Positions 3,409 to 22,945 of a stretch of DNA of 24,000 nucleotides are shown in pieces. The stretch's first letter is position 1. The number at the start of each line of letters is the position of its first letter. Location: positions 39,820-63,819 of the forward strand of contig JACQYF010000002.1 of NCBI GenBank assembly GCA_016208315.1. The letters run 5' to 3'. The notes below the pieces were generated by a model. It made no database searches. It was not told where the DNA came from and worked only from the letters and a program-made list of their open reading frames with translations. Source of the stretch: Chloroflexota bacterium (lineage in GTDB: Bacteria; Chloroflexota; Anaerolineae; UBA4142). The translations under genes were made by a program, and so were the position numbers.

Positions 3409-3424
3409 CACTCATCCTTCATCC

Positions 3425-5298: not shown

Positions 5299-5382
5299 AG
5301 CGCAACCTTGAAAATGGGATTGGGAGATGGATCGCAGCGGACAGTTCTGCGCTCCGCCGCAAGTTGGGCAACTCATGTCAAT

Positions 5383-5478
5383 GAAACAATTATCCAATGA
5401 ACCAATGAGCCAAATTGACTCCGCTGTGGGGAACTTGTTTGGCTCATTGGCTCATTGGCATATTGGACAATTGTTTTC
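5383..5478. repeat. Tandem-octamer hairpin, units CCAATGAR / GGCTCATT (family F)
   Basis: The core is a 13-bp perfect stem, 5402-5414 (CCAATGAGCCAAA) with 5438-5450 (TTTGGCTCATTGG). Further pairing extends out to 5383/5478, with one extra 8-nt unit bulged on the right arm. The right arm reads GGCTCATT GGCTCATT GGCATATT GGACAATT. It overlaps the last 10 codons and the stop of nrnA. Confidence 0.85.
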
Positions 5479-6821: not shown

Positions 6822-8987
6822 CTAACTCACTTTCACCTTTTGATAGAATTCGAGTTGATCGCCTTCGTGAAAATCGTTAAAGCGTTCCAGGGTCAAGCCG
6901 CACTCATAGCCCTCGGCGACTTCTTTCACGTCGTCGGTAAAACGCTTGAGCGACGAGATCGGGCCCTTGAACACCTCGGCGCCGCCGCGCATGACCACGG
7001 CGGTCGCGTTGCGCGCGATCTTGCCTTGCGTCACGCGCAGGCCCGCGGCCGCGGCGCGTTTCATGTGAAAGACCTGCAAGACCTGCGCGCGGCCGGTGAG
7101 CATATCTTTGTAGACCGGTTCGAGCATGCCTTTCAGCGCCTTGTCAATGTCTTCGATGAGTTTGTAAATGATATTGTAACGGCGAATGTCAATGCCTTCG
7201 CTCTCGGCCAACGATTCCGCCGCGGACTCGGCGCCGACATTGAACGCGATGACGATCGCTTGCGACGCCACCGCCAGCATGACATCCGAGCGGGTGATGG
7301 TGCCGATGCCTTCGTGGATGATCTTGACCTTGATCTTTTCGTCGCCCAACTTTTCGAGCGACGAAACGATCGGTTCGAGCGAGCCGCTGACGTCGGCTTT
7401 GACGATCAGGTTCAGTTCCTTGACGTTGCCCGCTTGGAATTGCGCGAACAGGTCATTAAGATTAACGGCGCGCGACGGTTTTTGTTCGGCCTGGCGCTTG
7501 GCGAGCGCGCGTTCCTCCGCGCGGCTGCGCGCCATCCGCTCGTCCATCAGGACGATAAACTCTTGGCCGGCCTCGGGCATATTCGATAGGCCCGTGACGG
7601 CCACCGGAGTCCCGGGCACGGCTTCGCGCAGCGCGTCGCCGTGATCGTCGAACATGGCCCGAATCTTGCCCCACACGCCGGCAATCTGGATAGCATCGCC
7701 GACGTGGAGCGTGCCGTCGTTCACGAGCAGCGTCGCCATCGGCCCTTGCTGCTTGTCGAGCTTGGACTCGATGACGCTGCCCGTCGCGGGTTTCTTGGGA
7801 TTGGCGCGCAAATCGGCGAGTTCGGCGACGAGGACGATGTTCTCCAAAAGTTCGTCTATGCCGGTCTTTTGCTTGGCCGAAATCGGCACGACCGTGACCT
7901 CGTCCTTGCCGCCCCAGACGGCCAGGCCCAGCTCGGCCAGTTGCTGCTTGACGAATTCGGGATTGGCGTTCGCCTTGTCAATCTTGTTCAGCGCGATGAT
8001 GATCGGAACGTGCGCCGCGCGCGCGTGGTCAATCGCTTCGCGCGTCTGCGGCATCACGCCGTCGTCGGCGGCGACGACGATGATCGCGATGTCGGTGGCC
8101 TTGGCGCCGCGGGCGCGCATCGCCGTAAAGGCCTCGTGGCCAGGCGTATCGAGAAAGGTGATCTTTTTGTTATTGTGCAAAACTTGATACGCGCCGATGT
8201 GCTGGGTGATGCCGCCCGCTTCGCCTTCGGCGACGTGCGCGTGCCGGATCACATCCAGCACCGACGTTTTGCCGTGGTCTACGTGGCCCATCACGGTGAC
8301 GACCGGCGGGCGCAATTCGAGATGCGCGGCTTCCGCTTCGGTGTATTCGCGTTTCTTGGGAATGCTCGTCAGAGTCGTTACCTCGGGTTCGATAATGACT
8401 GGCTTTCGCTCTTTCACTTCGAAACCGAGTTCGCCGGCAACCAACGCGGCGGTATCAAAATCAATCGGCTGATTGATGTTGGCCATGACCCCGTTCGCCA
8501 TCAGCTTGCGGATAATGTCTATTGGACTGACTTTAAGTTCGGCGGCGAGATCGCGCACGGTCAGGTTATCGGGCAACTCGACCACTTTGGGTGGCGGGGG
8601 CGGCGCGACAGGCGCAGCCGCCACCGGTCGCATCGCCGGTCGGGCCGATGGAACGGGATGCGCGGCGGTCGCGGGGCGGCTGCCGGCTGGACGCATGGGA
8701 GCTCCCGGTCGAGCCGGAGCATGGGCCGGTTTCGGCGCGGCGGTGTGCGGTCGGGGCGCTGGCGGTCTCGGCGCGGTGGATGCGGGCGGGGCGGTCTTGA
8801 CGGGCGCAGCCGGGCGCGCAGAGACGCCAGGCCGTGGCGCAGGACGCGCGGGACTGCTCGCAGCCGGGCGCGGGGCGCTTTGGGTTGTTGGTTTGCGGGC
8901 TGGTGGCTGGTTGGCAGGTGTTGCGCTCGACGCCGGCTTGGTCTTTTTCGGCTCACTCCGCTTGACAGGATTCTGGTTCTCAGCCAT
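6822..8987 (-). CDS. infB: Translation initiation factor IF-2
   Basis: G-domain motifs VVTVMGHVDHGKTSVLD, DTPGHEAF and NKID are present, preceded by a Pro/Ala-rich N-terminal region. AAGGAG lies 7 nt upstream of the ATG at 8987. Confidence 0.97.
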   Translation of the reverse strand: MAENQNPVKRSEPKKTKPASSATPANQPPARKPTTQSAPRPAASSPARPAPRPGVSARPAAPVKTAPPASTAPRPPAPRPHTAAPKPAHAPARPGAPMRPAGSRPATAAHPVPSARPAMRPVAAAPVAPPPPPKVVELPDNLTVRDLAAELKVSPIDIIRKLMANGVMANINQPIDFDTAALVAGELGFEVKERKPVIIEPEVTTLTSIPKKREYTEAEAAHLELRPPVVTVMGHVDHGKTSVLDVIRHAHVAEGEAGGITQHIGAYQVLHNNKKITFLDTPGHEAFTAMRARGAKATDIAIIVVAADDGVMPQTREAIDHARAAHVPIIIALNKIDKANANPEFVKQQLAELGLAVWGGKDEVTVVPISAKQKTGIDELLENIVLVAELADLRANPKKPATGSVIESKLDKQQGPMATLLVNDGTLHVGDAIQIAGVWGKIRAMFDDHGDALREAVPGTPVAVTGLSNMPEAGQEFIVLMDERMARSRAEERALAKRQAEQKPSRAVNLNDLFAQFQAGNVKELNLIVKADVSGSLEPIVSSLEKLGDEKIKVKIIHEGIGTITRSDVMLAVASQAIVIAFNVGAESAAESLAESEGIDIRRYNIIYKLIEDIDKALKGMLEPVYKDMLTGRAQVLQVFHMKRAAAAGLRVTQGKIARNATAVVMRGGAEVFKGPISSLKRFTDDVKEVAEGYECGLTLERFNDFHEGDQLEFYQKVKVS

Positions 8988-9095
8988 AGAAAAACTCCTT
9001 TCGTTCCCACATCCGATTCATCCTCGCGTAATACAAAATCGAATCAGGGATTCAAATATTCGGTTGGGCAATTCGCTTGGGGAAGGAGCAAGAGA

Positions 9096-9130
9096 GTAAT
9101 CAGTAATTAGTAATTACCAATTACTGACTA
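9096..9130. repeat. Tandem-heptamer hairpin, unit GTAATYA / CCAATTAC (family B, copy 1)
   Basis: Sequence reads GTAATCA GTAATTA GTAATTA CCAATTA CTGACTA. CAGTAATT (9101-9108) pairs perfectly with AATTACTG (9119-9126), and an alternative register is also possible. It lies in the 281-nt untranslated spacer upstream of infB. It shares 13-14-mers with the element at 12142-12189. Confidence 0.75.
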
Positions 9131-9268: not shown

Positions 9269-9583
9269 TCATTCTGTTTTGTTTTGTGGCGCGGTCGTTT
9301 CATGCGCGCGCGGCGGCAGCGTCGCGGTGAACTCGCGCAACCGCGTCAAGTCTTGCTGATCCAGCGGCGTTTCCATCTTCAGGGCGTGTTCGAGACGCCC
9401 GCGACTGCTCAGCGCCTCTTCCCAACACTCGCGCTGGCGGCATAGATACGCGCCGCGTCCGGATTTCTTGCCGGTCGCGTCCGCCTCAACCTTATTGTCC
9501 GCCGTCCGCACGACGCGCACAAGTTCGCGTTTTGCCCGCACCGTGCGACAGGCGATGCACGTGCGCTGGGGAATATGTTTCAT
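9269..9583 (-). CDS. ylxR: YlxR/RnpM-family (DUF448) RNA-binding protein
   Basis: MKHIPQRTCIACRTVRAKRELVRVV...GRGAYLC is the DUF448 signature. It sits in the conserved position between nusA and infB. Confidence 0.85.
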   Translation of the reverse strand: MKHIPQRTCIACRTVRAKRELVRVVRTADNKVEADATGKKSGRGAYLCRQRECWEEALSSRGRLEHALKMETPLDQQDLTRLREFTATLPPRAHETTAPQNKTE

Positions 9584-9659
9584 AGTTGGATAGTTTGCTA
9601 GTTGAATAGTTTCATAGTGTCGTAACTATCAAACTATGAAACTATCCAACTATTCAACT
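9584..9659. repeat. Tandem-octamer hairpin, unit AGTTNNAT (family E)
   Basis: Left arm AGTTGGAT AGTTTGCT AGTTGAAT AGTTTCAT AGT, loop GTCGTA, right arm ACT ATCAAACT ATGAAACT ATCCAACT ATTCAACT. The roughly 35-position stem has about 6 mismatches or wobbles. It occupies the whole spacer from the ylxR start codon (9583) to the nusA stop (9658-9660). Confidence 0.85.
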
Positions 9660-11226
9660 AACCCTCTTCATCGTTCAGAAAGTCGCGCGCCCGGCCGGCT
9701 TTGCGCTTGCGCTTGGCAACCACCTTGCCCAGTTTCTCGTCAAAGACGAGCATTTGGCGCTTGCGGCGGTCTTCCTTGCGCTTTTTCAATTCTTCTGCCG
9801 ATAACTCTTCATCCCCGGCTTCGGCCTCGAACTCTTCCCAGGCCTCTTCAAAGGTTTGCTCGGGTATCTCTTCGACCGGCGCGGCTACGGCGGGCGCCTG
9901 TGGCGGCGCGACGGCTTCCGGTTCGACGACGGTTGGAGCGGCCGCCTCGGGCGCTTTAGTTTCCGCAACCGCTTCCGGCGCGGCGGGCGCTTGGGCGACC
10001 GCTTGGGCCGGTTCCACGGAAGCCGGCTCTTCGGCTGCCACGGGTTGAGGTTCTGGCGCGGCGACGGGCGCGGCTTGCTCGGCAACAACCGGCGCCTCTT
10101 TGCTCACGGCTTCTGCCACAATTTCTTCTGGCGCTACGGCGGCCGGTTCTTCCAATTCGACGGGCGGCGCGGGCACGACCGCTTCTGCGACCTGGGTCTC
10201 GCTCTTGATATCAATGCGCCAGCCCGTTAGCTTGGCCGCGAGCCGCGCGTTCTGGCCCTCTTTGCCGATCGCCAGCGAAAGCTGCCGGTCCTGCACGACG
10301 ACGTTCGCGACCTTGTCGCCGTTCGCGTCCTCGGCCAAACGAACCGAAATGACTTTGGCCGGGCTGAGCGCGTTCGCGACGAAAGCGCCCGGATCGGAAC
10401 TCCATTCGACGACGTCAATTTTCTCACCATTCAATTCGTTGACGATGGCCTGGATGCGCACGCCGCGCTGCCCCACGCACGCGCCCACCGGATCAATGCC
10501 ATCCTGCCGCGCGACGACCGCGATCTTGGAGCGCGATCCGGATTCGCGGGCGATGGCTTTGATCTCGACCAAGCCGTTGAAAATCTCGGGCACTTCGAGT
10601 TCGAACAAGCGCCGCAGCATATTGCGGTGCGTGCGCGATAGAATCACCTGCGGGCCGCGCGACGTCTTGTTGACTTCGCTGATATAGGCGCGAATCTTTT
10701 GGTTGTGCCGGTAACGCTCGGTCGGAATCTGCTCCGAGCGCGGCAGGACCGCTTCGATCTTGCCCAGACTCACCGTGATATTTTGCGCGTCCACGTTGTG
10801 GACGGTCCCGTGAACGATCTCGCCCTCGCGCTCGGCGTACGACGTATACAACGCATCCCGTTCGGCTTCGCGAATCCGCTGGAGGATCACCTGCTTGGCG
10901 GTTTGCGCGGCAATGCGCCCAAAATCGTCCGGGGTCGCTTCGATTTGAATCGTCCCGCCGATTTGGGCCATCGGGTCGAAGGTCTTGGCGTCGGCCAAAG
11001 AAATCTCGGCGCGGCGATCATGCACCTCGTCCACAATGGCTTTGTGGGCGAAAATTTTCACCTTGCCGCTGGTCGGCTCGATGGTGGCCGAAATATCCTG
11101 TCCTCCGCCAAAGTTGCGCTTGTACGCAGAAACGAGGGCTTGCTCGACGGCCTGAATGACGACCTCTTTAGGCAGACTGCGTTCGCTGCAAAGCTGCGTA
11201 ATGGCGACGAGGAAATCGTTCTTCAT
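9658..11226 (-). CDS. nusA: Transcription termination/antitermination factor NusA with a long Ala/Pro/Glu-rich C-terminal extension
   Basis: The N-terminus [37 protein letters not shown] is followed by S1 and KH regions (GEIVHGTV..., [34 protein letters not shown]). ATG at 11226 has GAGGT upstream; the ORF-track start at 11271 adds 15 unsupported codons. Confidence 0.95.
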
Positions 11227-12142: not shown

Positions 12143-12189
12143 ATTACAGATTACCAATTACTCCTATGGGTAATTAGTAATTGGTAATT
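12142..12189. repeat. Tandem-heptamer hairpin, unit AATTACM / GTAATTR (family B, copy 2)
   Basis: AATTACAGATTACCAATTAC (12142-12161), loop TCCTATGG, then GTAATTAGTAATTGGTAATT (12170-12189). This gives about 20 pairing positions with 2 mismatches and 1 G-T. It starts at the last base of the ydcF-like stop and ends at the SD (GGAGA, 12190-12194) of the next gene. Confidence 0.85.
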
Positions 12190-12198
12190 GGAGATTGT

Positions 12199-13914
12199 AT
12201 GGATCGCGCCATTCCGTTTTCGGCCAGTGAAGAGATCGAACTGTATCAGCGGACGTATTATTCGCTGCTGCGGTCGAGCGGCGAAATTCAGATCAAGTCG
12301 CTGATCGAGACTCACGCGCAGATGGATTCGTCCCTACACATCCACGCGCGCGCCGAGTTTCCCGACATGGCCGCGTTCGTCTATTCCACGCTGCGCCTGC
12401 CCGATTGCATTAAGTCGGTGCGCCTCGTCGTGCTCGGACAGTCGGACGAGGTGTTTCTCAAAGCCGGCTTGACCGACGTGGAGCATTGGCAAGAGGTCAG
12501 CGCGCCCGGGCGACGGCGCAAATACTATTACGACGGCCGCGAAACGCTGGCGGCCTTTATCGCCAGCGCGTCGGACATTGACGATCTCATTCCCATCTTG
12601 ACCGCGTACGAGATCGAATGGAACAAACTTAACGATCTGCTCGAGCGCTCCGGCGCGGCGGCTCGCCTCCGCCAATACTCTGAACGCGGCGCGCCAACGT
12701 CGTCGGGCGAACGCGAGCAACTGGCGAACGACCTGCGGATCAGCTTGAGCGATTGGGCGACTCTGGAGAACATCTGGGGCGCGGCGCTTGCGCCCAATTT
12801 ACTCACCATCGCCGCCGGGCGGAAACACTTTGCGCTGCGGCTGCTCGCCGGGTCGCTGGTGGATTACCACAAGGCCACGCAGCGGTGGTGGAACCATATT
12901 GCGCGCGAGGCGGGCACCGTCATCGGCAATCGGCCGGTCTATTTCGTATCATCGAACACGCACAGTTTCGTCAATTTGGTTTCGGGTTATGCGTTGGAGC
13001 ACGAGCGCGAGTTGATTGACTATATCGGGGAAATGCCACATCAAGACTTGCTGCGGGAGTACCAGGCGATTCAGGCGGAAGAGGTCAAGAGCAGCAAAGA
13101 AAATTTCTTGTACTATGTTTTGAAAAAATATTGCGCCGATCCGGAGAATGTCGCCGCCGGGCGCGAGAAAGAGCGCCGAGAAACCGAAGTGGGCATCACC
13201 TACGTCAAGAGCGATCGCTATTTGGACGTGGATGCCCAGGTCATCGAATTGAACAAACTGATCCCGGAACGGCTCGATCCGCGCCTGCCGCACGAGCACG
13301 TCAGGCGTTTGCAGAATAGCGACGCCGTGATTTTCAATATTGACTATCCCTTGGGCTTGGCGGCTTACCAGATTCTTTCTGAGGTTACGCAGAACGTAGA
13401 CCAGATCAAGGGCATTTACTCGCTCGGCAAAGCGGCGACGTTGAACGGTCGCATCGGCGATGTGATCATTCCGAATGTCGTGTACGACGAGCATTCGCAG
13501 AATACGTACTTGTTCAACAACTGCTTTACGGCACGCGACATTGCGCCGTACCTCGTCTACGGTTCGGTGCTCGACAACCAAAAGGCCATCAGCGTCAAAG
13601 GGACGTTCTTGCAAAATCGCCGGTTCATGGAGCTATTTTATCGCGAGGGTTATACCGATATCGAGATGGAGGCCGGGCCGTATCTCTCGGCCATTTACGA
13701 GATCAGTTACCCGCGACGCTATCCGGTCAACGAAATCGTGCGCTTGTACCATGTGGATTTGGATGCGGGGTTTCTCCACTATGCGACGGATACGCCGTAC
13801 AGCAAGGGGAAAAATCTCGGGACGGTCCACCCATCCTACTACGGCATGGACCCCACCTATGCGACCGCGCTCGCGGTGTTGCAGCGGATTTTGAAACGGG
13901 AGACGCGTGGGTGA
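12199..13914 (+). CDS. Uncharacterised 571-aa protein; the C-terminal part resembles the PNP/UDP-1 (nucleoside phosphorylase / AMP nucleosidase) fold
   Basis: A long ORF with GGAGA 4 nt upstream of the ATG at 12199. C-terminal motif order AVIFNIDYPLGLAAYQIL ... GDVIIPNVVYDEHS ... TDIEMEAGPY parallels AMP nucleosidase and PNP-family catalytic domains (the E-M-E motif). I do not recognise the N-terminal ~340 aa. Confidence 0.55.
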   Translation: MDRAIPFSASEEIELYQRTYYSLLRSSGEIQIKSLIETHAQMDSSLHIHARAEFPDMAAFVYSTLRLPDCIKSVRLVVLGQSDEVFLKAGLTDVEHWQEVSAPGRRRKYYYDGRETLAAFIASASDIDDLIPILTAYEIEWNKLNDLLERSGAAARLRQYSERGAPTSSGEREQLANDLRISLSDWATLENIWGAALAPNLLTIAAGRKHFALRLLAGSLVDYHKATQRWWNHIAREAGTVIGNRPVYFVSSNTHSFVNLVSGYALEHERELIDYIGEMPHQDLLREYQAIQAEEVKSSKENFLYYVLKKYCADPENVAAGREKERRETEVGITYVKSDRYLDVDAQVIELNKLIPERLDPRLPHEHVRRLQNSDAVIFNIDYPLGLAAYQILSEVTQNVDQIKGIYSLGKAATLNGRIGDVIIPNVVYDEHSQNTYLFNNCFTARDIAPYLVYGSVLDNQKAISVKGTFLQNRRFMELFYREGYTDIEMEAGPYLSAIYEISYPRRYPVNEIVRLYHVDLDAGFLHYATDTPYSKGKNLGTVHPSYYGMDPTYATALAVLQRILKRETRG

Positions 13915-13969
13915 GTATGGGGGTGTGGGAGTATGGGAGCGCCCCCCACACTCCCACACTCCCATACTC
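13913..13969. repeat. Tandem-octamer hairpin, unit GGGAGTAT/GGGGGTGT (family A, copy 2)
   Basis: 13913-13939 pairs with 13943-13969 over 27 positions (24 Watson-Crick, 1 G-T, 2 mismatches) with loop CGC. It overlaps the TGA of the upstream gene and sits between convergent genes (stops at 13912-13914 and 13979-13981). Confidence 0.88.
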
Positions 13970-13978
13970 ATCACTCCC

Positions 13979-14895: not shown

Positions 14896-16647
14896 CTATT
14901 TCCGCCCGAACTCGCGTTCGAGTTGCGCGACGTTCAATTGGATGACGGTCGGGCGGCCGTGCGGGCAAGTACGCGGCGCAGTCGTCTGCTCCAAGCGACG
15001 GACCAACTCGCGCATCTCTTCGAGCGCCAAGACCTGGCCGCCTTTTACCGCGATGCTTTTGCACACGCTCGAAATCAGGCGCGCCTCTGACGTCTTTTCC
15101 AACGGCGCTTCTCCCTGCTCGATCTCATCCAGAATCGCGATGAGCGTTACACTCGGTTCGCCCCTTTTCAGCAGACCGGGCACCGCGCGCAGCAACATCG
15201 TTTGATTGCCGAACGGCTCGATCTTGAAGCCGACCGACGCCAGGGCCTCGCGATTGGCTTGCAGCATGGCGAATTGCGCCAGCGTAAGTTGGATCGGCGC
15301 GGGATCGAGCAGCTCTTGAATCGCAACCTGCGCGCCGGCGCGCTCCGCGGTCAGTTGCTCGTACAAGACGCGCTCGTGCGCGGCGTGTTGGTCAATGAGA
15401 TACAACCCATCGGGCCCTTCGGCGATGATGTAGGTGGAGGCGATTTGGCCGAGGACGCGGAGCATGGGGAGTTTGGGAGGTTGGGAGTATGGGAGTTGGG
15501 AGGTTGGAGGTTGGAAGTTGGAAGTTGGAATGGGGTGGTGGAGGTTGATGGCGAGTTGTGTTTCGCTTGGCGTGGGCGGGAAATCTTGGCGCGGGAAAGG
15601 CGCGCCGACGGTGATGGACGGAATCGGCGCGTTGGCGGTGAGCGCCGCGCGGACCGCGCGCTGCACGGCGTTGAATACCATGCTGGTGTCGCGAAAGCGG
15701 ACCTCGCTCTTTGTCGGATGAACGTTGACATCCACCATATCCGGCGGCACAATCACATCCAACGCGACAATCGGCGCGCGCCCCACCATCAGCGACGTGT
15801 GGTATGCTTCGATGACCGCGTGTTGGAGCGTGCGATCCTGAATCCAGCGATGGTTGACAAAAAAGAGCATGTACTTGCGGTTGCCGCGGTTGACGTTGGG
15901 AGGGGAGACAAAGCCGGTGACTTGGAGGTTAGAAGGTGGAAGTTGGAGGTTGGAATCACTATCCGATTTCCAATTTCCAACTTCCAACATCTGTTTGGCC
16001 GTTTCAATCCCAAACACCTTCACGAGCACGTCGAACATCTTGCCCGTGCCCGGCGATTGGAACGTGAGGCGGTCTTCGTTGACGAGGGAAAAACGCAGGT
16101 GCGGATATGCGAGGGCGTAGGCATTGAGCAGGTCGCCAATATGTCCGGCTTCGGTCGCGGGCATTTTCAGAAATTTGAGGCGCGCGGGGACGTGCCGGAA
16201 CAAATCCTCGACGGTGATGATTGTGCCCGCGGGCGCGCCTTGCGCGTGGTGCTCGGTGATCTTGCTGCCGTCCACCCGAATCTCGGAACCCGATTCTTCG
16301 TCGCGGTCGCGCGTAATCAGCGTGACGCGCGCAACCGCGGCAATCGAGGGCAGCGCCTCGCCGCGAAAGCCGAGCGTCTGGAGCCGAAACAAATCGTCGG
16401 CGGATTCGAGCTTGCTCGTCGCGTGGCGCGCGAACGCGGTCTCGACTTCGGCGGCGGGAATGCCGCAGCCGTTGTCCGCCACGCGGATGAGGCGCTGCCC
16501 GCCGCCGCGCACCTCCACTTTGATCTCAGTCGCGCCCGCGTCAATCGAGTTCTCGATCAGTTCCTTGACGACCGACGCCGGCCGCTCGATCACTTCGCCC
16601 GCGGCGATCTTGGCGGCCAGGTCGTCTGACAGAATATGGATTGCCAT
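14896..16647 (-). CDS. mutL: DNA mismatch repair protein MutL, carrying two internal periodic-repeat segments
   Basis: GHKL ATPase motifs (AAGEVIERPASVVKELIENSIDAGAT, DNGCGI, TLGFRGEALPSI), the transducer region (FVNHRWIQDR) and the C-terminal dimerisation/endonuclease region (LIDQHAAHERVLYE, CPHGRPT) are present. Start ATG at 16647 (MAIHILSDD). The 18 upstream codons of the ORF track come from repeat element C1. Confidence 0.93.
   Translation of the reverse strand: MAIHILSDDLAAKIAAGEVIERPASVVKELIENSIDAGATEIKVEVRGGGQRLIRVADNGCGIPAAEVETAFARHATSKLESADDLFRLQTLGFRGEALPSIAAVARVTLITRDRDEESGSEIRVDGSKITEHHAQGAPAGTIITVEDLFRHVPARLKFLKMPATEAGHIGDLLNAYALAYPHLRFSLVNEDRLTFQSPGTGKMFDVLVKVFGIETAKQMLEVGNWKSDSDSNLQLPPSNLQVTGFVSPPNVNRGNRKYMLFFVNHRWIQDRTLQHAVIEAYHTSLMVGRAPIVALDVIVPPDMVDVNVHPTKSEVRFRDTSMVFNAVQRAVRAALTANAPIPSITVGAPFPRQDFPPTPSETQLAINLHHPIPTSNFQPPTSQLPYSQPPKLPMLRVLGQIASTYIIAEGPDGLYLIDQHAAHERVLYEQLTAERAGAQVAIQELLDPAPIQLTLAQFAMLQANREALASVGFKIEPFGNQTMLLRAVPGLLKRGEPSVTLIAILDEIEQGEAPLEKTSEARLISSVCKSIAVKGGQVLALEEMRELVRRLEQTTAPRTCPHGRPTVIQLNVAQLEREFGRK
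15466..15548. repeat. One-armed heptamer array GTTGGAR/GGGAGTT (family D, copy 1) inside the mutL linker; G-rich on the + strand
   Basis: The + strand reads GGGGAGTTTGGGAGGTTGGGAGTATGGGAGTTGGGAGGTTGGAGGTTGGAAGTTGGAAGTTGGAATGG... It contains exact tandem copies GGTTGGA x2 and AGTTGGA x2 (15502-15529). It also contains the family-A unit GGGAGTAT. mutL translates it as INLHHPIPTSNFQPPTSQLPYSQPPKLP. Confidence 0.85.
15922..15992. repeat. Heptamer hairpin (family D, copy 2) inside the mutL N-terminal domain
   Basis: Left arm TTGGAGG TTAGAAG GTGGAAG TTGGAGG TTGGAA, 12-nt loop (15956-15967), right arm TTCCAAT TTCCAAC TTCCAAC. Positions 15931-15955 pair with 15968-15992 (21 Watson-Crick, 2 G-T, 2 mismatches). 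mutL reads it in frame as EVGNWKSDSDSNLQLPPSNLQ. Confidence 0.88.
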
Positions 16648-16664: not shown

Positions 16665-16782
16665 AAAATTCAAAATTCGTAATTCGTAATTCGTAATTCA
16701 AACCTCTTGGCCTGGGATAGGAATTACGAATTACGAATTACGAATTACGAATTACGAATTACGAATTACGAATTTTGATTTT
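16665..16782. repeat. Large asymmetric heptamer hairpin, unit GTAATTC / GAATTAC (family C, copy 1)
   Basis: Left arm AAAATTC x2 plus GTAATTC x3 (16665-16699), 21-nt loop, right arm GAATTAC x7 plus GAATTTT GATTTT (16721-16782). That is 5 units against 9. It occupies most of the divergent mutL/dehydratase intergenic region. Confidence 0.92.
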
Positions 16783-16800: not shown

Positions 16801-17784
16801 ATGCGTTCGATGATTACGATCCGGGAGATTCTCGAGGCGCAGCGACGGATTCGCCCGCACGTTTTTCGCACGCCGCTGCGCTATTCGTTTTTGCTGAGCG
16901 AACGTATTGGCGCGTCGGTCTTTTTAAAGCTGGAGAACTGGCAGGTGACCGGCTCGTTCAAGCCGCGCGGCGCGCTCAATATGATGGCAATGTTGGACGA
17001 TGCGGAACGCGCGCGCGGCGTGGTGACCGCCAGCGCGGGCAATCACGCGCTCGGCGTCGGCTATGCAGCGCGGCTTCTCAACATCTCGCCGGCGACGATC
17101 TTTGTGCCGCGCACTGCGCCGCGCGCCAAACTGGACAAGCTGCGCGAATTCCCGGTTGACGTGCGAACGGTCGGCGAAACCTACGACGACGCCCATCACG
17201 CGGCCGAAGCGCACCGGCGCGCGACCGGCGCGACGTTCGTGAACGCGTACGACGACCCGCGCACCGTCGCGGGGCAGGCGACGATTGGCTTGGAGATTCT
17301 GGAGGATTTGCCGGACGTGGACGCGATCCTCGTTCCGGTCGGCGGGGGCGGGATGATTGCCGGGATTGCGATTGCGGCCAAAGCGCTCGCGCCCGCGGTC
17401 AAGATCATCGCCGTGCAGCCCGTGGCCTCGCCCGCACTGCGCGATTCCTTGCGCGACGGCAAGTGCTACGAGGAGTATCCCGCTGCGCCGACCATCTGCG
17501 ACGGGCTGGCAGGCGGCATCGGCAAAATCTGTTTCGAGGTCGCGCAAAGGTTGGTGGACGATGTCGTGGTCGTCGAAGAAGACGAAACCAAAACGGCAAT
17601 TCGCGCGCTCGCCGAAACTGAGCAGTTGATCGCGGAGGGGTCGGGCGCGGTAGGCGTTGCGGCGCTGCTTTCGCAGAAGGCGGATTTGGCGGGCAAACTC
17701 GTGGCGGTCGTGCTCAGCGGCGGCAACATTGATCTGGCGCTGCTCGCGCAAATCCTAAATCAGAAATCAGAAATCCTAAATTGA
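16801..17784 (+). CDS. PLP-dependent threonine/serine dehydratase (threonine ammonia-lyase-like, no ACT domain)
   Basis: FLKLENWQVTGSFKPRGALN contains the PLP lysine motif, with ASAGNHALGVGYAA and a GGGGMIAG glycine loop. The start is ambiguous among ATG 16801, ATG 16810 and the TTG 16786 of the ORF track. The last 11 codons and the stop lie in a heptamer array. Confidence 0.85.
   Translation: MRSMITIREILEAQRRIRPHVFRTPLRYSFLLSERIGASVFLKLENWQVTGSFKPRGALNMMAMLDDAERARGVVTASAGNHALGVGYAARLLNISPATIFVPRTAPRAKLDKLREFPVDVRTVGETYDDAHHAAEAHRRATGATFVNAYDDPRTVAGQATIGLEILEDLPDVDAILVPVGGGGMIAGIAIAAKALAPAVKIIAVQPVASPALRDSLRDGKCYEEYPAAPTICDGLAGGIGKICFEVAQRLVDDVVVVEEDETKTAIRALAETEQLIAEGSGAVGVAALLSQKADLAGKLVAVVLSGGNIDLALLAQILNQKSEILN
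17750..17784. repeat. One-armed heptamer array AAATCCT AAATCAG AAATCAG AAATCCT AAATTGA (family H)
   Basis: Five direct 7-nt units with no complementary arm nearby. They encode QILNQKSEILN plus the TGA of the dehydratase. They also contain the overlapping TTG (17781) used as the eamA-family start. Confidence 0.8.
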
Positions 17785-18689
17785 GCACGCGCCCCTATCT
17801 CGTTCTCGCCCTCGGCATCGTCGCCGTCTCGTCGTCCGCGTTCCTGATCACGTTTGCGCGTCAGGAGGGCGTACCTGCCGTCGCGATTGCCGCGCTCCGG
17901 CTTTCGTTCGCCTCCCTCGTCCTCGCGCCGATCGCCGTCACGCGCGCGCGGGACGAATGGCGGCGGCTTGCGCCGCGCGACCTGGCGTTGGCGATTGCTT
18001 CGGGTTTTCTGCTCGCGCTTCATTTCGCCTTTTGGATCAGCTCGCTCGACTATACTTCTGTGATGAGTTCGATCGTCCTGGTCAGCACGAACCCATTTTT
18101 CGTCGCGCTAGCGTCGGTCTGGCTCCTGCGCGAGTCGTTACATCGCGGAACGGTCGTCGGGATTCTCATTGCAGTCGCCGGGGGCGCGCTGGTCGCGTTG
18201 ACGGATTTGGGCCAGGGCGGGACCGAGTCCCTGCAAGGCGATGCGCTGGCGGTCGCGGGCGCGGTGACCGTGTCCGGGTATTTGGTCATCGGACGCGTCT
18301 TGCGAAGGAAACTGTCGCTCGTCGGCTACATCGGCTTGGTCTATTCGACCGCGGCGATCGTGTTGCTCGTGTTGGCGTGGGTGATGAACGCGCGGCTCAC
18401 CGGTTATTCGACCAAGAGCTATGCGCTGATCGTCCTCCTCGCCGCAGGCCCCCAATTAATCGGCCATTCGGCGTATAATTGGGCGCTGAAATATGTCTCG
18501 GCCACCTTCGTCACGATCACGGTGCTCGCCGAACCGATTGGCGCGACGCTGCTCGCGATTCCCATTCTCGCTCAGGTGCCTCCGCCGATCAAACTCATCG
18601 GCGGCGCGCTGATTCTGGTGGGGATTTACTTTGCGGCGCGACAGGAAGCGGTAAGCAGTGAACAGTCAACAGTCAACAGTGGACAGTGA
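17781..18689 (+). CDS. EamA/DMT-family transporter
   Basis: A protein of about 10 predicted hydrophobic helices with two EamA-like halves (LALGIVAVSSSAFLI..., ...LAAGPQLIGHSAYNWALKYVSATFVTI). TTG at 17781 is the only start candidate and overlaps the upstream TGA (TTGA). The C-terminal SSEQSTVNSGQ plus stop is encoded by repeat element G. Confidence 0.8.
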   Translation: MSTRPYLVLALGIVAVSSSAFLITFARQEGVPAVAIAALRLSFASLVLAPIAVTRARDEWRRLAPRDLALAIASGFLLALHFAFWISSLDYTSVMSSIVLVSTNPFFVALASVWLLRESLHRGTVVGILIAVAGGALVALTDLGQGGTESLQGDALAVAGAVTVSGYLVIGRVLRRKLSLVGYIGLVYSTAAIVLLVLAWVMNARLTGYSTKSYALIVLLAAGPQLIGHSAYNWALKYVSATFVTITVLAEPIGATLLAIPILAQVPPPIKLIGGALILVGIYFAARQEAVSSEQSTVNSGQ

Positions 18690-18758
18690 ACAGTGAACAG
18701 TTAACGGCGAATACGGACCAGCGAATACTGTTTACTGTACACTGTTGACTGTTGACTG
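18656..18758. repeat. Asymmetric heptamer hairpin, unit CAGTSAA / CTGTTGA (family G)
   Basis: Left arm CAGTGAA CAGTCAA CAGTCAA CAGTGGA CAGTGAA CAGTGAA CAGTTAA (18656-18704). The spacer carries GCGAATA twice. Right arm CTGTTTA CTGTACA CTGTTGA CTGTTGA CTG (18728-18758). That is 7 units against 4. Best register is 18663-18694 with 18727-18758 (2 non-Watson-Crick positions). Confidence 0.9.
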
Positions 18759-19409
18759 ATGAGTACCATGCTCAAATATCTTCTCTTCGATCTAGACGAT
18801 ACGCTCTACTCGACGTCCGCGGGGCTGATGGAGGAAATCAGCGTGCGGATGAACGAGTACATGATGACGCGCGTCGGCGTGCCCGAGAGCGAGGTCGCGG
18901 AACTGCGGCAGTTCTATTGGCGCAAATACGGCACGACGCTGCGCGGTTTGTATATCGAACGGCAGATTGACGCGCAAGAGTTTTTGGAATTCGTTCACGA
19001 CATTGAGATCGCCAAGTACATTGCAACCGACCCGCGGCTCGACGCGATGCTGACGCAGCTCGCGCGGCACAAGTTCATATTCACCAACGCGCCGGCGAGT
19101 CACGCGCGCCGCGTCCTCGCCGCGCTCGGCATCGCCAAACATTTCGAGCGGATATTCGACATCAACTTTATCGCCTACGAGAGCAAGCCGACGCCGTCGG
19201 GCTATGCCAAAGTGTTGTCGGCTTTGGGCGCGCGCGGCGACGAATGCCTGATGATTGACGATACCGCGCGCAACCTCGTCCCCGCGAAAGCATTGGGCAT
19301 GCGCACGGTCTGGCTGGACGGCAACCATGATCCCCGCACGGCGGAAGGGTGCGAGAGCGCCGACGCGGTGATTCATACGATTTACGAGGTGGAGAAAATG
19401 TTCCATTGA
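18759..19409 (+). CDS. HAD-superfamily hydrolase, pyrimidine 5'-nucleotidase (SDT1-like) type
   Basis: HAD motif I LLFDLDDTLY is present, with FTNA and a distal IDD motif. The ATG at 18759 immediately follows repeat element G; ATG 18768 is an alternative. Confidence 0.82.
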   Translation: MSTMLKYLLFDLDDTLYSTSAGLMEEISVRMNEYMMTRVGVPESEVAELRQFYWRKYGTTLRGLYIERQIDAQEFLEFVHDIEIAKYIATDPRLDAMLTQLARHKFIFTNAPASHARRVLAALGIAKHFERIFDINFIAYESKPTPSGYAKVLSALGARGDECLMIDDTARNLVPAKALGMRTVWLDGNHDPRTAEGCESADAVIHTIYEVEKMFH

Positions 19410-19496: not shown

Positions 19497-20621
19497 TTGA
19501 TCTATGGTCTGCAGGGCGCGGTGCTGCCGCAGTTGAGAGATGACCTCGCTCTGAGCTATACGGAGGTCGGCTTACTGTTTACCGTGCCGGGACTGATCGG
19601 AATCGTCGGCGAGCCGTTCATCGGTCTCCTGGCCGACACGCGCCACCGCCGCGCGCTGGTCGTAGGCGGCATCACGGCGACTGCGTTCGGGCTGCTGCTC
19701 ACGGGCATCGGGCAATCGTTAGCGGTCATGCTGGTCGCGTTCAGCGTCTTGTACGTCGCGAGCGGCGCATACGTAACGCTCGCCCAAGCCACGCTGATTG
19801 ATCGCAACCCGACGCGGGCCGAACAGACGATGGCGCGTTGGACGCTGTTGGGCAGCATCGGCGTGACCGTCGCGCCGCTAGTCGTCACCGCGTTGTTTTT
19901 CTTGGGCTATGGCTGGCGCGGTTTGTATTTGGGTCTGGCGGGCGTCGCCGGAATTTACACCGCGCTATTGCTGCGCCAGCGTTTCGACGCGCACGCCGGC
20001 GCGGACAAACATATCGCCCCGCGCGAAATGTTCGCGAACCTGATCGCCGCGCTGAAAACGCGCGAGCTGCTGCGCTGGGTTGCGCTTACGGAACTTGCCG
20101 ACCTGATGCTCGACAAGTTGCTCGAAGTGACCGGGCTGTACTTTGCCGACGTGGTCGGCGTCGGCGTGGCCGCGGCCAGCGGCGCGATTGCGGTCCTGAC
20201 GATTGCCGGCCTTGTCGGCGATGCGCTGCTCGTGCCCGCGCTCGAACGCGTCAGTGGGCTGCGAATCCTGCGCGTGACCGCAGTGGTCGTGCTCGTCGGC
20301 TATGTCGCATTCTTGCTCGTGCCGGTCGTCTGGCTCAAGTTCGCTTTGATCGGCGCGATCGGCTTTTGTACGGCGGGGTGGTACGCCGTCCTGGCCGGCA
20401 GAACGTACGCGGTGTTGCCGAAGCAATCAGGTCTGATCGTGTCGGTTTCGGCGTTGGGCAACGTCTCGAGCGTCCTTGTGCCCTTCGTCATTGGTCGAAT
20501 TGCGGACACGTTTGGATTAGAGTGGGCGATGTGGCTGCTGGCGCTCGGACCAGTCGCGCTGATCGTCGGATTGCCGCGGGAAGGGAATGCGGAAAGGTGC
20601 GAAAACATCTCACCGTTCTAA
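19497..20621 (+). CDS. MFS transporter; the true start is probably upstream of the listed TTG
   Basis: The MFS loop motif GLLADTRHRR follows TM2, and multiple hydrophobic helices are present. The hydrophobic segment expected to be TM1 (AALFLFALYGVELLDELIYG) is encoded in frame at 19446-19505, upstream of the TTG at 19497. No ATG, GTG or TTG occurs between 19410 and 19496. Confidence 0.75.
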   Translation: MIYGLQGAVLPQLRDDLALSYTEVGLLFTVPGLIGIVGEPFIGLLADTRHRRALVVGGITATAFGLLLTGIGQSLAVMLVAFSVLYVASGAYVTLAQATLIDRNPTRAEQTMARWTLLGSIGVTVAPLVVTALFFLGYGWRGLYLGLAGVAGIYTALLLRQRFDAHAGADKHIAPREMFANLIAALKTRELLRWVALTELADLMLDKLLEVTGLYFADVVGVGVAAASGAIAVLTIAGLVGDALLVPALERVSGLRILRVTAVVVLVGYVAFLLVPVVWLKFALIGAIGFCTAGWYAVLAGRTYAVLPKQSGLIVSVSALGNVSSVLVPFVIGRIADTFGLEWAMWLLALGPVALIVGLPREGNAERCENISPF

Positions 20622-22945
20622 CGCTATACATCCTCATCGCACTCGTCCTGTCGTGGCCGCTGGCGCTGAATTTCGCGTCGGCGATTCCGGGCGTGGAGGG
20701 CGACGCGGCGAGTTTCGTGTGGGCGATGGGCTGGGCCAAGACCGCGCTTGCGGATCTGCGCGTCAACCCATTCCACACCGACTATGTTTTCTATCCGCTC
20801 GGCGGCGCGACGCAACTGCTCTGGGCGACGTCGCTTGTCGGCTTGGTCTCGATTCCGCTGCAATACGTCTTCGGCTTGATCGTCACCTACAACCTTTTGT
20901 ACCTCGCGGCGACGGTGCTGACGGCGTATGGGACGTTTCTACTTGCGGAATTCGTAATTCGTAATTCGGAATTCAGAATTATGAATTATGAATTCGATCA
21001 AACGCCACTGCCACCGCTTGCCACCGTTCTCCTGACGCAGTTCATAACGCAGAACCGCAAACTCGCCACCCGACACTCGTCACTTGGCCCTTTTGTTGCG
21101 GGACTCGTATTTGCGTTTGCGCCGCTGCGGCAGGGGTATGGGCTGGCGTTCTTCAATCTGTTCCATACCGAGCTGATTCCATTCTACTTGCTCTTTTTGC
21201 TCCGCGCCGCGCATGAGAAATCGTGGCGGTTGGCGATTCTGGCAGGCGTGTTTCTCGGTTTGAATACGTACATTGATTTCCAGATCGCCGCGTTTTTGAT
21301 CTTGTTGACGGGCGTGTTCGTGGCTAAAGACCCGAAGGGTTTACCAAAAACCCGTCGGGTCTGGGCGACCACGGCGCTTACCTCGCTGATGATCGCCATC
21401 CCCATCCTCCTCGCCGTTGCGAACGATTTTGCGGTTGAAGGCGGCAACTACATTCGCGTGTACAAGCTCGATTATTCTGCGGCGCGCTCTTACGATCTGC
21501 TGTCGTTCTTTGTGCCCAATGCGCGGAGCACGCTCTATGCCGATTCGCCGCTCAAGATTGCGAACGTCAACGCGGCGGTCCAAGCCCAGGATGAAAGTGC
21601 GCTCTCACCCGACCGCCAACCGTTTGTCGGCTATATCGTGCTCGCGCTGGCGGCGTTCGCCGTTGCCCGGCGGTGGCGGCAAGCGCGGTTCTGGCTTGTC
21701 GTGGCTGGCTTGTTCGCGCTTTTCAGTTTGGGCCCGTCGCTCCACATTTTCGGACGCGAGACTGGAATTCCGCTCCCGTTTCTCGCGCTGCACGAAATCC
21801 CCATCGTCAACCACATTCGCATTCCGATGCGGTATGGCATCATCGTGCCGCTCGCGCTGGCGATGCTGGTGGCGATGGCAATTGACAACTTGCAACGGAC
21901 AATTGACAAGTGGAGGTTGGAAGTTAGAAGTTGGAGGTTGGAAGCTGGACGTTGGAAATGGCGTGACGTGCTGCGGATTCGCTTGGCGAGTTTGGCGCTG
22001 GCGCTCGTTCCCGTTGGCATCTTGGTCGAATTTGCGGTGCTGCCGTATCCGGCGCAGCCGGTGACGATTCCGCGCGTGTATGCGGCGATTGCGCGCGAGC
22101 CGGGCGATTTTACTATCTTGGAGATTCCCACCTTCCATTGGCGCGGCGCGGCGGCCGCAGAACTCTATCAGCCGATCCATGGCAAGCGCATCTTGCGCGC
22201 CTACACCAATCGCATCGCGCCGGGACTCGCGGAGTATTTCGGCTATCGCGGCACGCCGATTGTCGTCCGGTCGCTCCGCGTGCTGGAGGGCGCGGAGCAG
22301 GGCGAGCTGGCGCCGGACGACATTGCCGAGGACAAGCGCGTCCGCGATCAAGTCGTTCAATTCTTCAATCTGCGCTACGCGCTCCTCCACCGTTCGTACC
22401 TCAAGCCGAACGAGGTCGGCGCGATTGACCGCTACCTGCGCGACGTTCTCGGCGCGCGGCTGATTGACGACGACGGTCAAGTCATCGCGTACCAAATTCC
22501 GCCGACGACGAGCGTTCCGGAGGTCATCGCGATTGATCTGCGCGAGAACATTGGACAGATGTACGCGGGGCGCGGCTGGCAGTTCGAATACCCGCCCGCG
22601 AACTGGAACGACGAATTCAATTTCGTGTGGGCGCGCGGCGCGCGGTCGGAGATCTATTTTGTCGCGGGCGACGCGGCGGAACGCGTGGTGACGCTGCACG
22701 CGCGCGCCGAATCGCCGCAGCGCGTGAATGTCTATCTGAACGATCAGCCGGTCGGCGAAATCGCTCTGACGACCGAATGGCGAGACCACGAGATCGCGCT
22801 GCCCGCGCGCGCGGTTGTATCGGGCATGAACCGGTTGACGTTGGATTACGGAGGCGAGTTCGAGGAGACGGTCGCGGTAACGATCATCCAGATTCGGCAA
22901 ATTGACATTCGGCGAGGAAATCATGGAACCCAAACCAGTCGTTGA
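20597..22945 (+). CDS. Large polytopic membrane protein, putative GT-C-type glycosyltransferase (YfhO/ArnT-like), with a C-terminal soluble domain and three internal repeat/hairpin segments
   Basis: A continuous 782-codon frame begins at the in-frame GTG at 20597 (VRKHLTVLTLYILIALVLSWPL), with GGGAAGGGA upstream. It has many hydrophobic helices and a beta-rich C-terminus. The upstream 253 codons of the 1035-aa ORF overlap the MFS gene in another frame and look spurious. The function call is from general architecture only. Confidence 0.7.
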   Translation: MRKHLTVLTLYILIALVLSWPLALNFASAIPGVEGDAASFVWAMGWAKTALADLRVNPFHTDYVFYPLGGATQLLWATSLVGLVSIPLQYVFGLIVTYNLLYLAATVLTAYGTFLLAEFVIRNSEFRIMNYEFDQTPLPPLATVLLTQFITQNRKLATRHSSLGPFVAGLVFAFAPLRQGYGLAFFNLFHTELIPFYLLFLLRAAHEKSWRLAILAGVFLGLNTYIDFQIAAFLILLTGVFVAKDPKGLPKTRRVWATTALTSLMIAIPILLAVANDFAVEGGNYIRVYKLDYSAARSYDLLSFFVPNARSTLYADSPLKIANVNAAVQAQDESALSPDRQPFVGYIVLALAAFAVARRWRQARFWLVVAGLFALFSLGPSLHIFGRETGIPLPFLALHEIPIVNHIRIPMRYGIIVPLALAMLVAMAIDNLQRTIDKWRLEVRSWRLEAGRWKWRDVLRIRLASLALALVPVGILVEFAVLPYPAQPVTIPRVYAAIAREPGDFTILEIPTFHWRGAAAAELYQPIHGKRILRAYTNRIAPGLAEYFGYRGTPIVVRSLRVLEGAEQGELAPDDIAEDKRVRDQVVQFFNLRYALLHRSYLKPNEVGAIDRYLRDVLGARLIDDDGQVIAYQIPPTTSVPEVIAIDLRENIGQMYAGRGWQFEYPPANWNDEFNFVWARGARSEIYFVAGDAAERVVTLHARAESPQRVNVYLNDQPVGEIALTTEWRDHEIALPARAVVSGMNRLTLDYGGEFEETVAVTIIQIRQIDIRRGNHGTQTSR
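20948..20995. repeat. 48-nt heptamer hairpin (family C, copy 2) exactly in frame inside the membrane-protein CDS
   Basis: Sequence reads GAATTCG TAATTCG TAATTCG GAATTCA GAATTAT GAATTAT GAATTC. Positions 20948-20967 pair with 20976-20995 over 20 bp (18 Watson-Crick plus 2 G-T on the sense strand) with an 8-nt loop. It starts at codon position 1 and encodes 16 aa, EFVIRNSEFRIMNYEF. Confidence 0.9.
21328..21362. repeat. Non-periodic 15-bp hairpin inside the membrane-protein CDS
   Basis: AGACCCGAAGGGTTT (21328-21342) / AAACCCGTCGGGTCT (21348-21362) pair at 14 of 15 positions with a 5-nt loop. It is translated as KDPKGLPKTRRV in a predicted loop between hydrophobic segments. Confidence 0.75.
21910..21958. 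repeat. One-armed heptamer array TTGGARG (family D, copy 3) inside the membrane-protein CDS
   Basis: Sequence reads GTGGAGG TTGGAAG TTAGAAG TTGGAGG TTGGAAG CTGGACG TTGGAAA. It is translated as KWRLEVRSWRLEAGRWKW. It is near-identical in unit content to 15922-15955 in mutL. It is preceded by a 10-nt direct repeat of CAATTGACAA (21880-21889 and 21900-21909). Confidence 0.85.

Follow-up and report, generated by a model that had tools for sequence, protein, structure and literature searches.

The 48-nt segment at positions 20948-20995 of a 24,000-nucleotide stretch from a Chloroflexota bacterium (the whole stretch that was analysed, called the window below) lies inside a gene for a predicted glycosyltransferase-like membrane protein. 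We read this segment as a resident, in-frame coding heptanucleotide simple-sequence repeat and not as a discrete inserted element, a reading to which we give a probability of roughly three in four. A segment with a 7-nt period at this exact position predates the divergence of the sampled Anaerolineae and Chloroflexota orthologues (45-78% protein identity), and in the window's own clade its length is fixed at 48 nt and its heptamer register is constant. In the GT-C-like membrane protein it specifies the end of a transmembrane helix, probably on the cytoplasmic side, and the first part of a low-constraint loop. The original prediction had described the segment as an insertion like the Rickettsia palindromic elements, a description that does not survive the comparison with the nearest relatives, which have the same 48-nt length and the same heptamer register. 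The features concerned are as follows.

20597-22945, plus strand: host gene, 782 aa, probable start GTG at 20597, encoding a GT-C-like polytopic membrane protein with a C-terminal beta-sandwich
20948-20995, plus strand: in-frame heptanucleotide array, 6.9 units, 16 codons, peptide EFVIRNSEFRIMNYEF
20948-20967, plus strand: left arm of the hairpin, (G/T)AATTCG units
20968-20975, plus strand: hairpin loop, 8 nt
20976-20995, plus strand: right arm of the hairpin, GAATTAT units
16665-16782, no strand assigned: intergenic hairpin with the same unit as 20948-20995, in the divergent spacer between the MutL and pyridoxal-phosphate (PLP) enzyme genes

The heptamer array and its fold

Written in units, the letters at 20948-20995 are GAATTCG TAATTCG TAATTCG GAATTCA GAATTAT GAATTAT GAATTC, and Tandem Repeats Finder reports a period of 7 and 7.3 copies at 20946-20996. 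The array thus consists of head-to-tail 7-nt copies, as do the heptanucleotide long simple sequence repeats (LSSRs) and the short tandemly repeated repetitive sequences (STRRs) discussed below. The sense RNA folds into an unbroken 20-bp stem with an 8-nt loop at a minimum free energy of -24.9 kcal/mol (z-score -5.9 to -6.7), a stability that 200 dinucleotide shuffles never equal. The sole non-Watson-Crick pairs in the sense-strand stem are two G-U pairs; on the antisense strand both become internal mismatches and the energy is -15.5 kcal/mol. Sequence and RNA fold thus agree with the original description of seven heptamers in a 20-bp stem with two G-U pairs, and the strong internal mRNA hairpin stands as a prediction (z to -6.7). 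The ORF (open reading frame) coordinates likewise confirm the borders first given: the element starts at codon position 1 of ORF 19838-22945 (20948 - 19838 = 1110 = 370 x 3), is 48 nt long, and places EFVIRNSEFRIMNYEF between ...TFLLA and DQTPLPP in the host protein. Its GC content is 29%, against about 60% for the host gene.

A homogeneous (GAATTCG)7 array folds at -23.2 kcal/mol, nearly as stably as the element itself, and the palindromic GAATTC core thus accounts for much of the potential to form a hairpin. The two arms are differentiated yet complementary, with TAATTCG on the left and GAATTAT on the right. We regard the hairpin as largely a by-product of the palindromic unit; it is probably unwound by translating ribosomes and probably has no conserved role, and the effect of the segment on the protein is most likely neutral.

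Two kinds of known element were considered and rejected. A miniature inverted-repeat transposable element (MITE) does not fit a segment that lacks a target-site duplication, the flanks CTACTTGCG and GATCAAACG sharing none, and that is in its entirety one periodic array. An extragenic palindrome of the repetitive extragenic palindromic (REP) or bacterial interspersed mosaic element (BIME) type does not fit an element that is intragenic and has no consensus beyond its unit. A search of the window against Rfam gave no match.

The orthologous site in related genomes

The loop between the anchors TAYGTFLLA and FAFAPLRLGYG is 54 aa long in 36 of about 100 homologues, including the window, and 53 aa long in seven. 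Orthologues lacking exactly these 16 codons had been proposed as a test of insertion; not one of the roughly 100 homologues has a loop 16 aa shorter (38 aa). At the DNA level the distance from anchor to anchor is exactly 162 nt in 16 loci including the window. Distant orthologues (45-49% identity) have a loop without the ~30-aa stretch 'PLPPFQTFLL...' that follows, yet they keep the repeat-encoded segment of ~16 aa. The median period-7 autocorrelation at the site is 0.49 over 27 loci, against 0.28 for background coding sequence (95th percentile 0.41), and the window is the most regular of all at 0.85. An ancestral loop encoded by non-periodic DNA had been named as the outcome that would speak against an insertion. 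Distant orthologues do have a homologous peptide here, but its DNA is periodic, and the segment is therefore neither a plain ancestral loop nor a new insertion but an old resident array.

The units found at the orthologous site are specific to each lineage, as the following related loci (L numbers) illustrate.

L013: CAGCGGT x4
L001: AAATTCA x4
L002 and L031: AAATGAC
L008 and L028: CAATTCC-like
L015: GGAATTC x4
L020: TTGGAAG, many copies
L038: (G/A)AAATTC x17
L032: three successive heptamer arrays, ~190 nt in total

Units of the AATTC type, which give peptides such as IRNS(E/K)F, recur in both near and distant orthologues and may plausibly represent the ancestral type. AATTC also occurs within the conserved codons on the flanks, E-E-I-L-R (GAAGAAATTCT...) and K-F-D (AAATTCGAY), and we infer that these could have seeded the array.

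Loci L033 and L035 are especially informative. They share 78% protein identity with the window and its gene order of MutL, PLP enzyme, EamA, HAD, host gene and thioesterase, and both have 48 nt at the site in the same heptamer register as the window:

Window: GAATTC GTAATTC GTAATTC GGAATTC AGAATTA TGAATTA TGAATTC
L033: GATGAA GTAATTC GTAAAGC GAGATTA GAGATTA GAGAATC GAGATTC
L035: GAGTAC GTGATTC GAGATTC GAGATTC GGGATTC GGGATTC GCGGTTC

Among the nearest relatives, identity is 0.58-0.69 in the array and 0.78-0.91 in the flanks (0.58 against 0.79 for the window and L033), and between the window and its relatives an identical change is found in several units together. Over 16 loci, units are 0.55 identical within an array, 0.46 identical at the same position between orthologues and 0.39 identical at different positions. 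From these sequence comparisons, concerted evolution of the units is suggested with moderate strength.

The hairpin, in contrast to length and register, is not conserved even at 78% protein identity. It is not seen in the three nearest relatives, L033, L035 and L036 (z of -0.15, +0.29 and -0.5), and it is absent in most orthologues too. A conserved structured RNA element was accordingly rejected, the hairpin not being kept among orthologues and Rfam giving no match. Protein-level selection for a heptad peptide was rejected as well, as the periodicity is one of 7 nt and not only of 21 nt, and as unrelated units swap at the site.

Length change and frame breaks at the repeat

Alleles were compared within clusters of proteins at 90% identity. 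In other lineages, the length difference between alleles separated by 0-4 substitutions in ~800 aa is exactly 7 aa (21 nt, three units). At the site orthologous to 20948-20995, QRSEVRG occurs twice in P0060 and once in P0192 and P0193 (0-1 substitutions), and EVRGQRS occurs in two or three copies in P0036 and P0189. At the second array of the gene (described below), P0016 differs by 7 aa from P0128 and P0129. Copy-number change by whole units, as in LSSRs and STRR-like repeats, is therefore seen at the orthologous site in other lineages, and differences of 21 nt between near-identical alleles indicate an active simple-sequence repeat filtered by the reading frame.

Two long arrays illustrate the same site. 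In L038 (47% identity), 3380-3532 holds 17 units of (G/A)AAATTC followed by GCGGAAA x3.6, all in frame (IRNSKFEIQNSKFKIQ...). Matches within the 17-unit array reach 93% at period 21 and 90% at period 7; such a 21-nt super-period is what one would expect were three-unit steps the only ones to survive in a gene. In L032, 1730-1925 holds GTGTTCA x3, GTCAGCG x11 and TTCACGC x11 at the orthologous site, with flanks out of frame and a coverage of 1.4x.

Five frame-broken alleles were found. Three (L032, L039, L040) break inside the arrays, which make up ~4% of the gene, and two (L025 and P0111) break outside them. The array-broken alleles have indels of +2 nt and +20 nt, the latter being three units less one T of a T-run; none is a gain or loss of 7 or 14 nt. 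L039 and L040 come from one JGI metagenome sample (3300059600) and L032 is covered at only 1.4x, and sequencing or assembly error is at least as likely an explanation of the frame breaks as real mutation. At 1-150 of L037, a contig end fuses an MFS-transporter-like fragment to the second half of the loop equivalent to 20948-20995 (...LTLLRAIPPFIAGLVFAFAPLRLG); this junction is either a real deletion and fusion or a chimeric assembly at the repeat.

A mechanism can be proposed along these lines. Slipped-strand mispairing would add and remove 7-nt units; within the gene only three-unit changes (21 nt, 7 aa) would survive; and selection on loop length would then trim the excess. Repeated gain and loss would homogenise the units at constant length, which is concerted evolution. 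The differentiation of the arms (TAATTC left, GAATTA right) might be due to intrastrand template switching, or to copying from the spacer element 4.2 kb upstream.

The spacer element and the sharing of units

The element at 16665-16782 forms a 114-nt hairpin (-46 kcal/mol, z -8.2) that abuts a promoter-like TTGATT...TAGAAT. Its left arm is AAAATTC x2 followed by GTAATTC x3, its centre is a non-repetitive stretch of 21 nt, and its right arm is a perfect GAATTAC x7.7. That it has the unit of the coding element, as originally claimed, is borne out by the pattern GAATTCGTAATTCG, which at up to two mismatches matches only 16673-16775 and the 20948-20995 element in the 24-kb window (13 matches against 0.25 expected). 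The left arm of 20948-20995 agrees with 16673-16693 at 20 of 21 positions and the right arm with the GAATTAC array at 17 of 20, so that the differentiation of left and right arms is common to both elements. The likeness of the two stops at the repeated heptamer unit.

In L033 the coding unit GAGATTA is the reverse complement of a unit in the syntenic spacer, with 13 nt exactly shared (regions 6982-7149, the spacer, and 10374-10404), and the shared coding and spacer unit thus differs between genomes, being TAATTCG in the window and GAGATTA in L033. L035 has no match to its spacer unit at the 20948-20995 site, but the spacer unit is that of its second array. Sharing of 11-mers between the coding array and the rest of the locus is clear for the window and L033 only, in a comparison that is confounded by locus length, and no same-locus unit match was found in the other loci within 4 kb on either side. 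We take the match between coding and spacer units, seen at the level of sequence, as suggestive only. The L033 spacer has a further peculiarity, in that some 100 nt, with the inverted repeat GGGTGGGCGTC...GACGCCCACCC at their ends, seem to break up its direct array.

More than 120 metagenome contigs, with 35-64% GC, contain the exact 21-mer GAATTCGTAATTCGTAATTCG, and coincidental sharing of the unit becomes likelier as a result. About a quarter of its copies lie inside long ORFs, including those of LeuRS-, MiaB- and adenylate cyclase-like proteins. The 21-mer stands in frame in unrelated proteins from organisms of 35-67% GC (L152, L085, L068, L051/L142 and L127). In the LeuRS-like ORF (L152) it gives 'TNYELRIP' right before the VFTTRPDT motif, and the MiaB-like (L085) and cyclase-like (L068) ORFs have 'ITNYELRITNS'. 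The equivalent loop of E. coli LeuRS is apparently of the same length, which would hint at equal-length overwriting and not at insertion.

Alternative explanations

Several observations weigh against a resident repeat that evolves by slippage. The length variants come from other lineages, and the protein cluster of the window genome has a single member. CAGCGGT (L013) and AAATGAC (L002) are unrelated to AATTC, and such units could mean replacement instead of gradual turnover in some orthologues. The difference between 0.55 and 0.46 in unit identity is not overwhelming. Each arm unit alone folds poorly (-4.8 and -6.4 kcal/mol), the unit order as observed is among the best 2.8% of 180 permutations for folding, and the complementary variants in the two arms are not obviously explained by pure slippage. 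Pure slippage also gives no account of why the coding array and the syntenic MutL/PLP-enzyme spacer share a unit in the window and L033. One suggestion, which we consider possible but rather doubtful, is that the resident array was overwritten from that spacer hairpin by short-patch gene conversion or ectopic template switching. This would yield the near-perfect hairpin of the window, and it is an addition to residency, not an alternative to it. The arm matches of 20/21 and 17/20 with the same left/right differentiation and the reverse-complementary unit of L033 with its 13 exact nucleotides point in this direction, and with 86 canonical units among 149 arrays a chance match should be uncommon. 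On the other hand, L035 has no such match at the coding site, the other loci have none within 4 kb, the abundance of the unit in metagenomes raises the chance expectation, the observation is post hoc, and the occurrence of GTAATTCGTAA at the site in both the window and L033 argues that the left-arm unit is ancestral there. Still more far-reaching, and unlikely in our estimation, is the idea that the arrays are an actively maintained, lineage-wide system of which the coding copies (GT-C loop, MutL linker) are collateral targets; it is prompted by the fact that arrays stay at orthologous positions across deep divergence while their units are rewritten. If true, it would fit a dedicated writer or copying process, such as ectopic template switching between arrays, or alternatively a reader of 7-nt periodic nucleic acid, for which one OB-fold (oligonucleotide/oligosaccharide-binding) protein per heptamer, as discussed for cold-shock proteins (PMC4679880), is a possible form.

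The original idea of a small mobile palindrome, comparable to Rickettsia palindromic elements or MITEs, belonging to one family with 16665-16782 and inserted in frame, draws on the fact that the segment is in frame, palindromic and AT-rich within a gene of ~60% GC, on the unit it has in common with the spacer element, on the 21-mer in metagenome contigs and their long ORFs, and on an array in mutL that is an insertion of ~11 aa relative to solved MutL structures. We nevertheless find it very improbable, as there is no homologue without the 16 codons, the nearest relatives are equal in length and register with diverged units, no target-site duplication is seen between CTACTTGCG and GATCAAACG, no consensus extends over the whole element (only the heptamer is shared with 16665-16782 in the 24-kb window), and related arrays shift by unit multiples, which is the behaviour of a repeat and not of transposition. 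A functional mRNA structure, selected for ribosome pausing after the transmembrane helix or for transcript stability or processing, would agree with the strong stem, with its position just past that helix, and with G-U pairs that favour the sense strand (-24.9 against -15.5 kcal/mol). The loss of the hairpin in the three nearest relatives and most orthologues, the even division of spacer hairpins between the strands (11 sense, 12 antisense), the lack of an Rfam match and a fold that follows from unit palindromy leave it highly improbable. Nor do we put much weight on a contingency locus, in which changes of one or two units would turn this surface-glycan enzyme off and on, with mutability as the reason for keeping the array. 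Loci of this kind classically have a non-triplet repeat in a gene such as this glycosyltransferase-like one, both arrays of the gene are conserved across the lineage, and three of the five frame-broken alleles break within arrays. These breaks, however, are of +2 and +20 nt instead of 7 or 14, they come from a single sample and a locus of low coverage for which sequencing or assembly error is no less likely, the arrays themselves are both short and imperfect, and similar ones occur in MutL and in ORFs called as Mur ligase and PLP enzyme, which are not contingency genes; the proposal is accordingly quite improbable. It is the long-resident repeat, then, that we favour.

Host gene and protein

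The probable start at GTG 20597 gives an N-terminal MRKH followed by a hydrophobic helix, and the first 25 nt of the host gene overlap the end of the upstream MFS gene. That MFS transporter gene (19497-20621), directly upstream, is absent from the otherwise syntenic L033, L035 and L038. Gene calls in the window rest on ORF and GC3 (third-codon-position GC) heuristics and Pfam. The host protein is 100% identical to 'MAG: hypothetical protein HY782_00640 [Chloroflexi bacterium]' and has 188 homologues (best E = 0); searches of Pfam and NCBIfam gave no family for it.

An AlphaFold2 model built with 36 homologues is of moderate confidence, with a predicted local distance difference test (pLDDT) score of 72.7 and a predicted template modelling score (pTM) of 0.72. 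With this model, Foldseek finds AftD (6wby, E 3e-8), then EmbB, PglB and ArnT (to 5e-5), at template modelling scores of about 0.4, and in the fold search the C-terminal beta-sandwich proves similar to carbohydrate-binding modules. The first loop contains G35-D36, which is invariant among homologues. The model thus suggests a glycosyltransferase-like protein with two GT-C hallmarks: its polytopic N-terminal membrane domain has the GT-C fold, and the first extracytoplasmic loop holds an acidic residue. In the model the element's residues, 118-133, complete helix 94-123 and continue into a loop that scores below 50 in pLDDT and that GT-C topology and the positive-inside rule would probably place in the cytoplasm. 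Across homologues the centre of this segment is hypervariable. Of the earlier suggestion that the protein tolerates or exploits the 16-aa segment, toleration agrees with the low-pLDDT loop and the hypervariable peptide, while nothing suggests use.

Other arrays in the window and the lineage

Heptamer arrays are by no means limited to the host-gene loop. Arrays no shorter than 21 nt were counted over 313 kb, the window and related loci together, with the following result.

Period 7: 123 arrays
Period 8: 38 arrays
Periods 4, 5 and 6: 1, 1 and 7 arrays
Periods 9, 10, 11 and 12: 8, 1, 2 and 13 arrays
Any period, shuffled sequence: about 0 arrays

An excess of 7-nt arrays over other periods, as described for LSSRs and STRR-like repeats, is thus present in the 313 kb. 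Unit diversity is high (86 canonical heptamers among 149 arrays), and about half of all elements are hairpin-like. Every locus includes the target gene, which biases the division of arrays into coding and intergenic, and we use that division only qualitatively. In the window an array with a period of 7 or 8 nt is found in most spacers, every array having a unit of its own, and many of these arrays are inverted pairs (-32 to -59 kcal/mol); several lie within the nusA-infB-truB-ribF gene string, and several overlap ORF ends and so lengthen ORFs artificially. Of 23 hairpins in co-directional spacers, 11 are more stable on the sense strand and 12 on the antisense strand, a split that shows no RNA-strand signature. 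The units of the 18654-18764 hairpin, CAACAGT / ACTGTTG, are presumably those of the cyanobacterial STRR3 heptamer, reportedly described by Mazel et al. 1990. The arrays outside the main element are listed here.

1445-1500, 5379-5476, 9571-9663, 13912-13970 and 18654-18764: spacer arrays of the inverted-pair group (besides 16665-16782)
3404-3434, 9094-9130 and 12169-12197: shorter spacer arrays
17750-17781: a further spacer array
21879-21957, plus strand: second in-frame heptamer array of the host gene, TGGAAGT/TTGGAGG units, peptide ...DKWRLEVRSWRLEAGRWKW...
15932-15991, minus strand: in-frame heptamer hairpin in mutL, TTGGAAG / TCCAATT, peptide ...LEVGNWKSDSDSNLQLPPSNLQV...
15465-15532, minus strand: in-frame direct 7/8-nt array in the MutL interdomain linker, GGGAGTT, peptide ...PIPTSNFQPPTSQLPYSQPP...

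The second array of the host gene has a degenerate CAAyTTG left arm and a weak hairpin (z -2.35), and its site in orthologues holds arrays of variable length or a gap. The mutL hairpin at 15932-15991 (-28.2 kcal/mol, z -5.6) is the ~11-aa insertion mentioned above, seen as an alignment gap against 9n2k and 7p8v. Heptamer arrays in the MutL linker are also found in L033, L035 and L038, and there are similar arrays in ORFs called as Mur ligase and PLP enzyme.

Comparison with known repeats

The cyanobacterial STRRs, from Mazel et al. 1990, are reportedly dispersed tandem heptanucleotides defined in heterocystous cyanobacteria. The arrays described here are likewise tandem heptanucleotides dispersed in the genome and differ in most units and in host phylum, the host being annotated as Chloroflexi, with relatives in Anaerolineae, and not a cyanobacterium. 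The unit (G/T)AATTCG is not known to be among those of STRR1-3. The palindromic elements of Rickettsia (Ogata et al. 2000) are reportedly copies of a dispersed consensus of ~100-150 bp, with orthologues that lack the insert. The segment at 20948-20995 is like them in being palindromic, in frame within a protein gene and tolerated in a surface or loop region, and unlike them in that only a 7-nt unit is shared and no orthologue lacks the segment. In the Borg elements, the repeat units within ORFs are reportedly multiples of 3 nt, whereas a 7-nt unit, as here, is read in each of its three frames and gives a peptide that repeats every 7 aa. As fast-evolving DNA repeats within an ORF that reshape disordered protein segments, the arrays are nonetheless like the amino-acid tandem repeats of the Borgs (PMC9879509).

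According to the survey by Mrazek and colleagues, prokaryotic heptanucleotide LSSRs are over-represented relative to other unit lengths, mostly intergenic, and ascribed to polymerase slippage (PMC4679880, PMC4692102). The arrays of this lineage share with the LSSRs described there the head-to-tail 7-nt units and their excess over other unit lengths. The array at 20948-20995 departs from that description in being intragenic and of in-frame total length although its unit is not a multiple of three, and in persisting at one orthologous position across deep divergence while its units turn over; the arrays here are also often paired as inverted arrays, and octamer arrays are enriched too. The GGGAATC / GGGGA(C/T)T repeats of Xanthomonas and Nostoc are dispersed near gene ends and vary in both length and sequence between close relatives; some are inverted repeats with stem-loop or cruciform potential, and a few are intragenic (PMC4692102). 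Heptamer arrays are dispersed, sometimes inverted and sometimes intragenic in our lineage also; their many units are mostly not G-rich, whereas in Xanthomonas and Nostoc a single G-rich unit that could form G-quadruplexes dominates (PMC4692102). TAACTGA direct repeats, found across Beggiatoaceae, Cyanobacteria and Bacteroidetes, have a single favoured unit with stop codons in one orientation; their translation in three frames into 7-aa peptide repeats has been discussed and a regulatory role in the 5' untranslated region proposed (PMC4679880). They too are a family of heptamer arrays found across phyla and translatable as 7-aa repeats, and the site-specific persistence in coding sequence seen here is undescribed for them (PMC4679880).

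The bacterial excess of heptamer repeats, inverted heptamer arrays and the translation of such arrays are thus already known (PMC4692102, PMC4679880). In a literature search we found no report of heptamer repeats in Chloroflexi, Chloroflexota or Anaerolineae, and no account of heptamers in a coding array that stays in place while its units turn over.

Implications

With the resident-repeat reading, the analogy to selfish palindrome insertion gives way to that of a non-triplet microsatellite long resident in a gene, in which only three-unit steps survive while the peptide, constant in length, is rewritten again and again. It would be a natural example of a mutational bias at the DNA level dictating the sequence of a protein loop. 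For annotation, such arrays lengthen ORFs, break assemblies and produce apparent frameshifts. The setting is a Chloroflexota lineage with 7- and 8-nt periodic hairpins in most spacers, even inside the nusA-infB operon, and the long-noted but unexplained excess of heptamer repeats in bacteria thereby becomes testable in a single clade.

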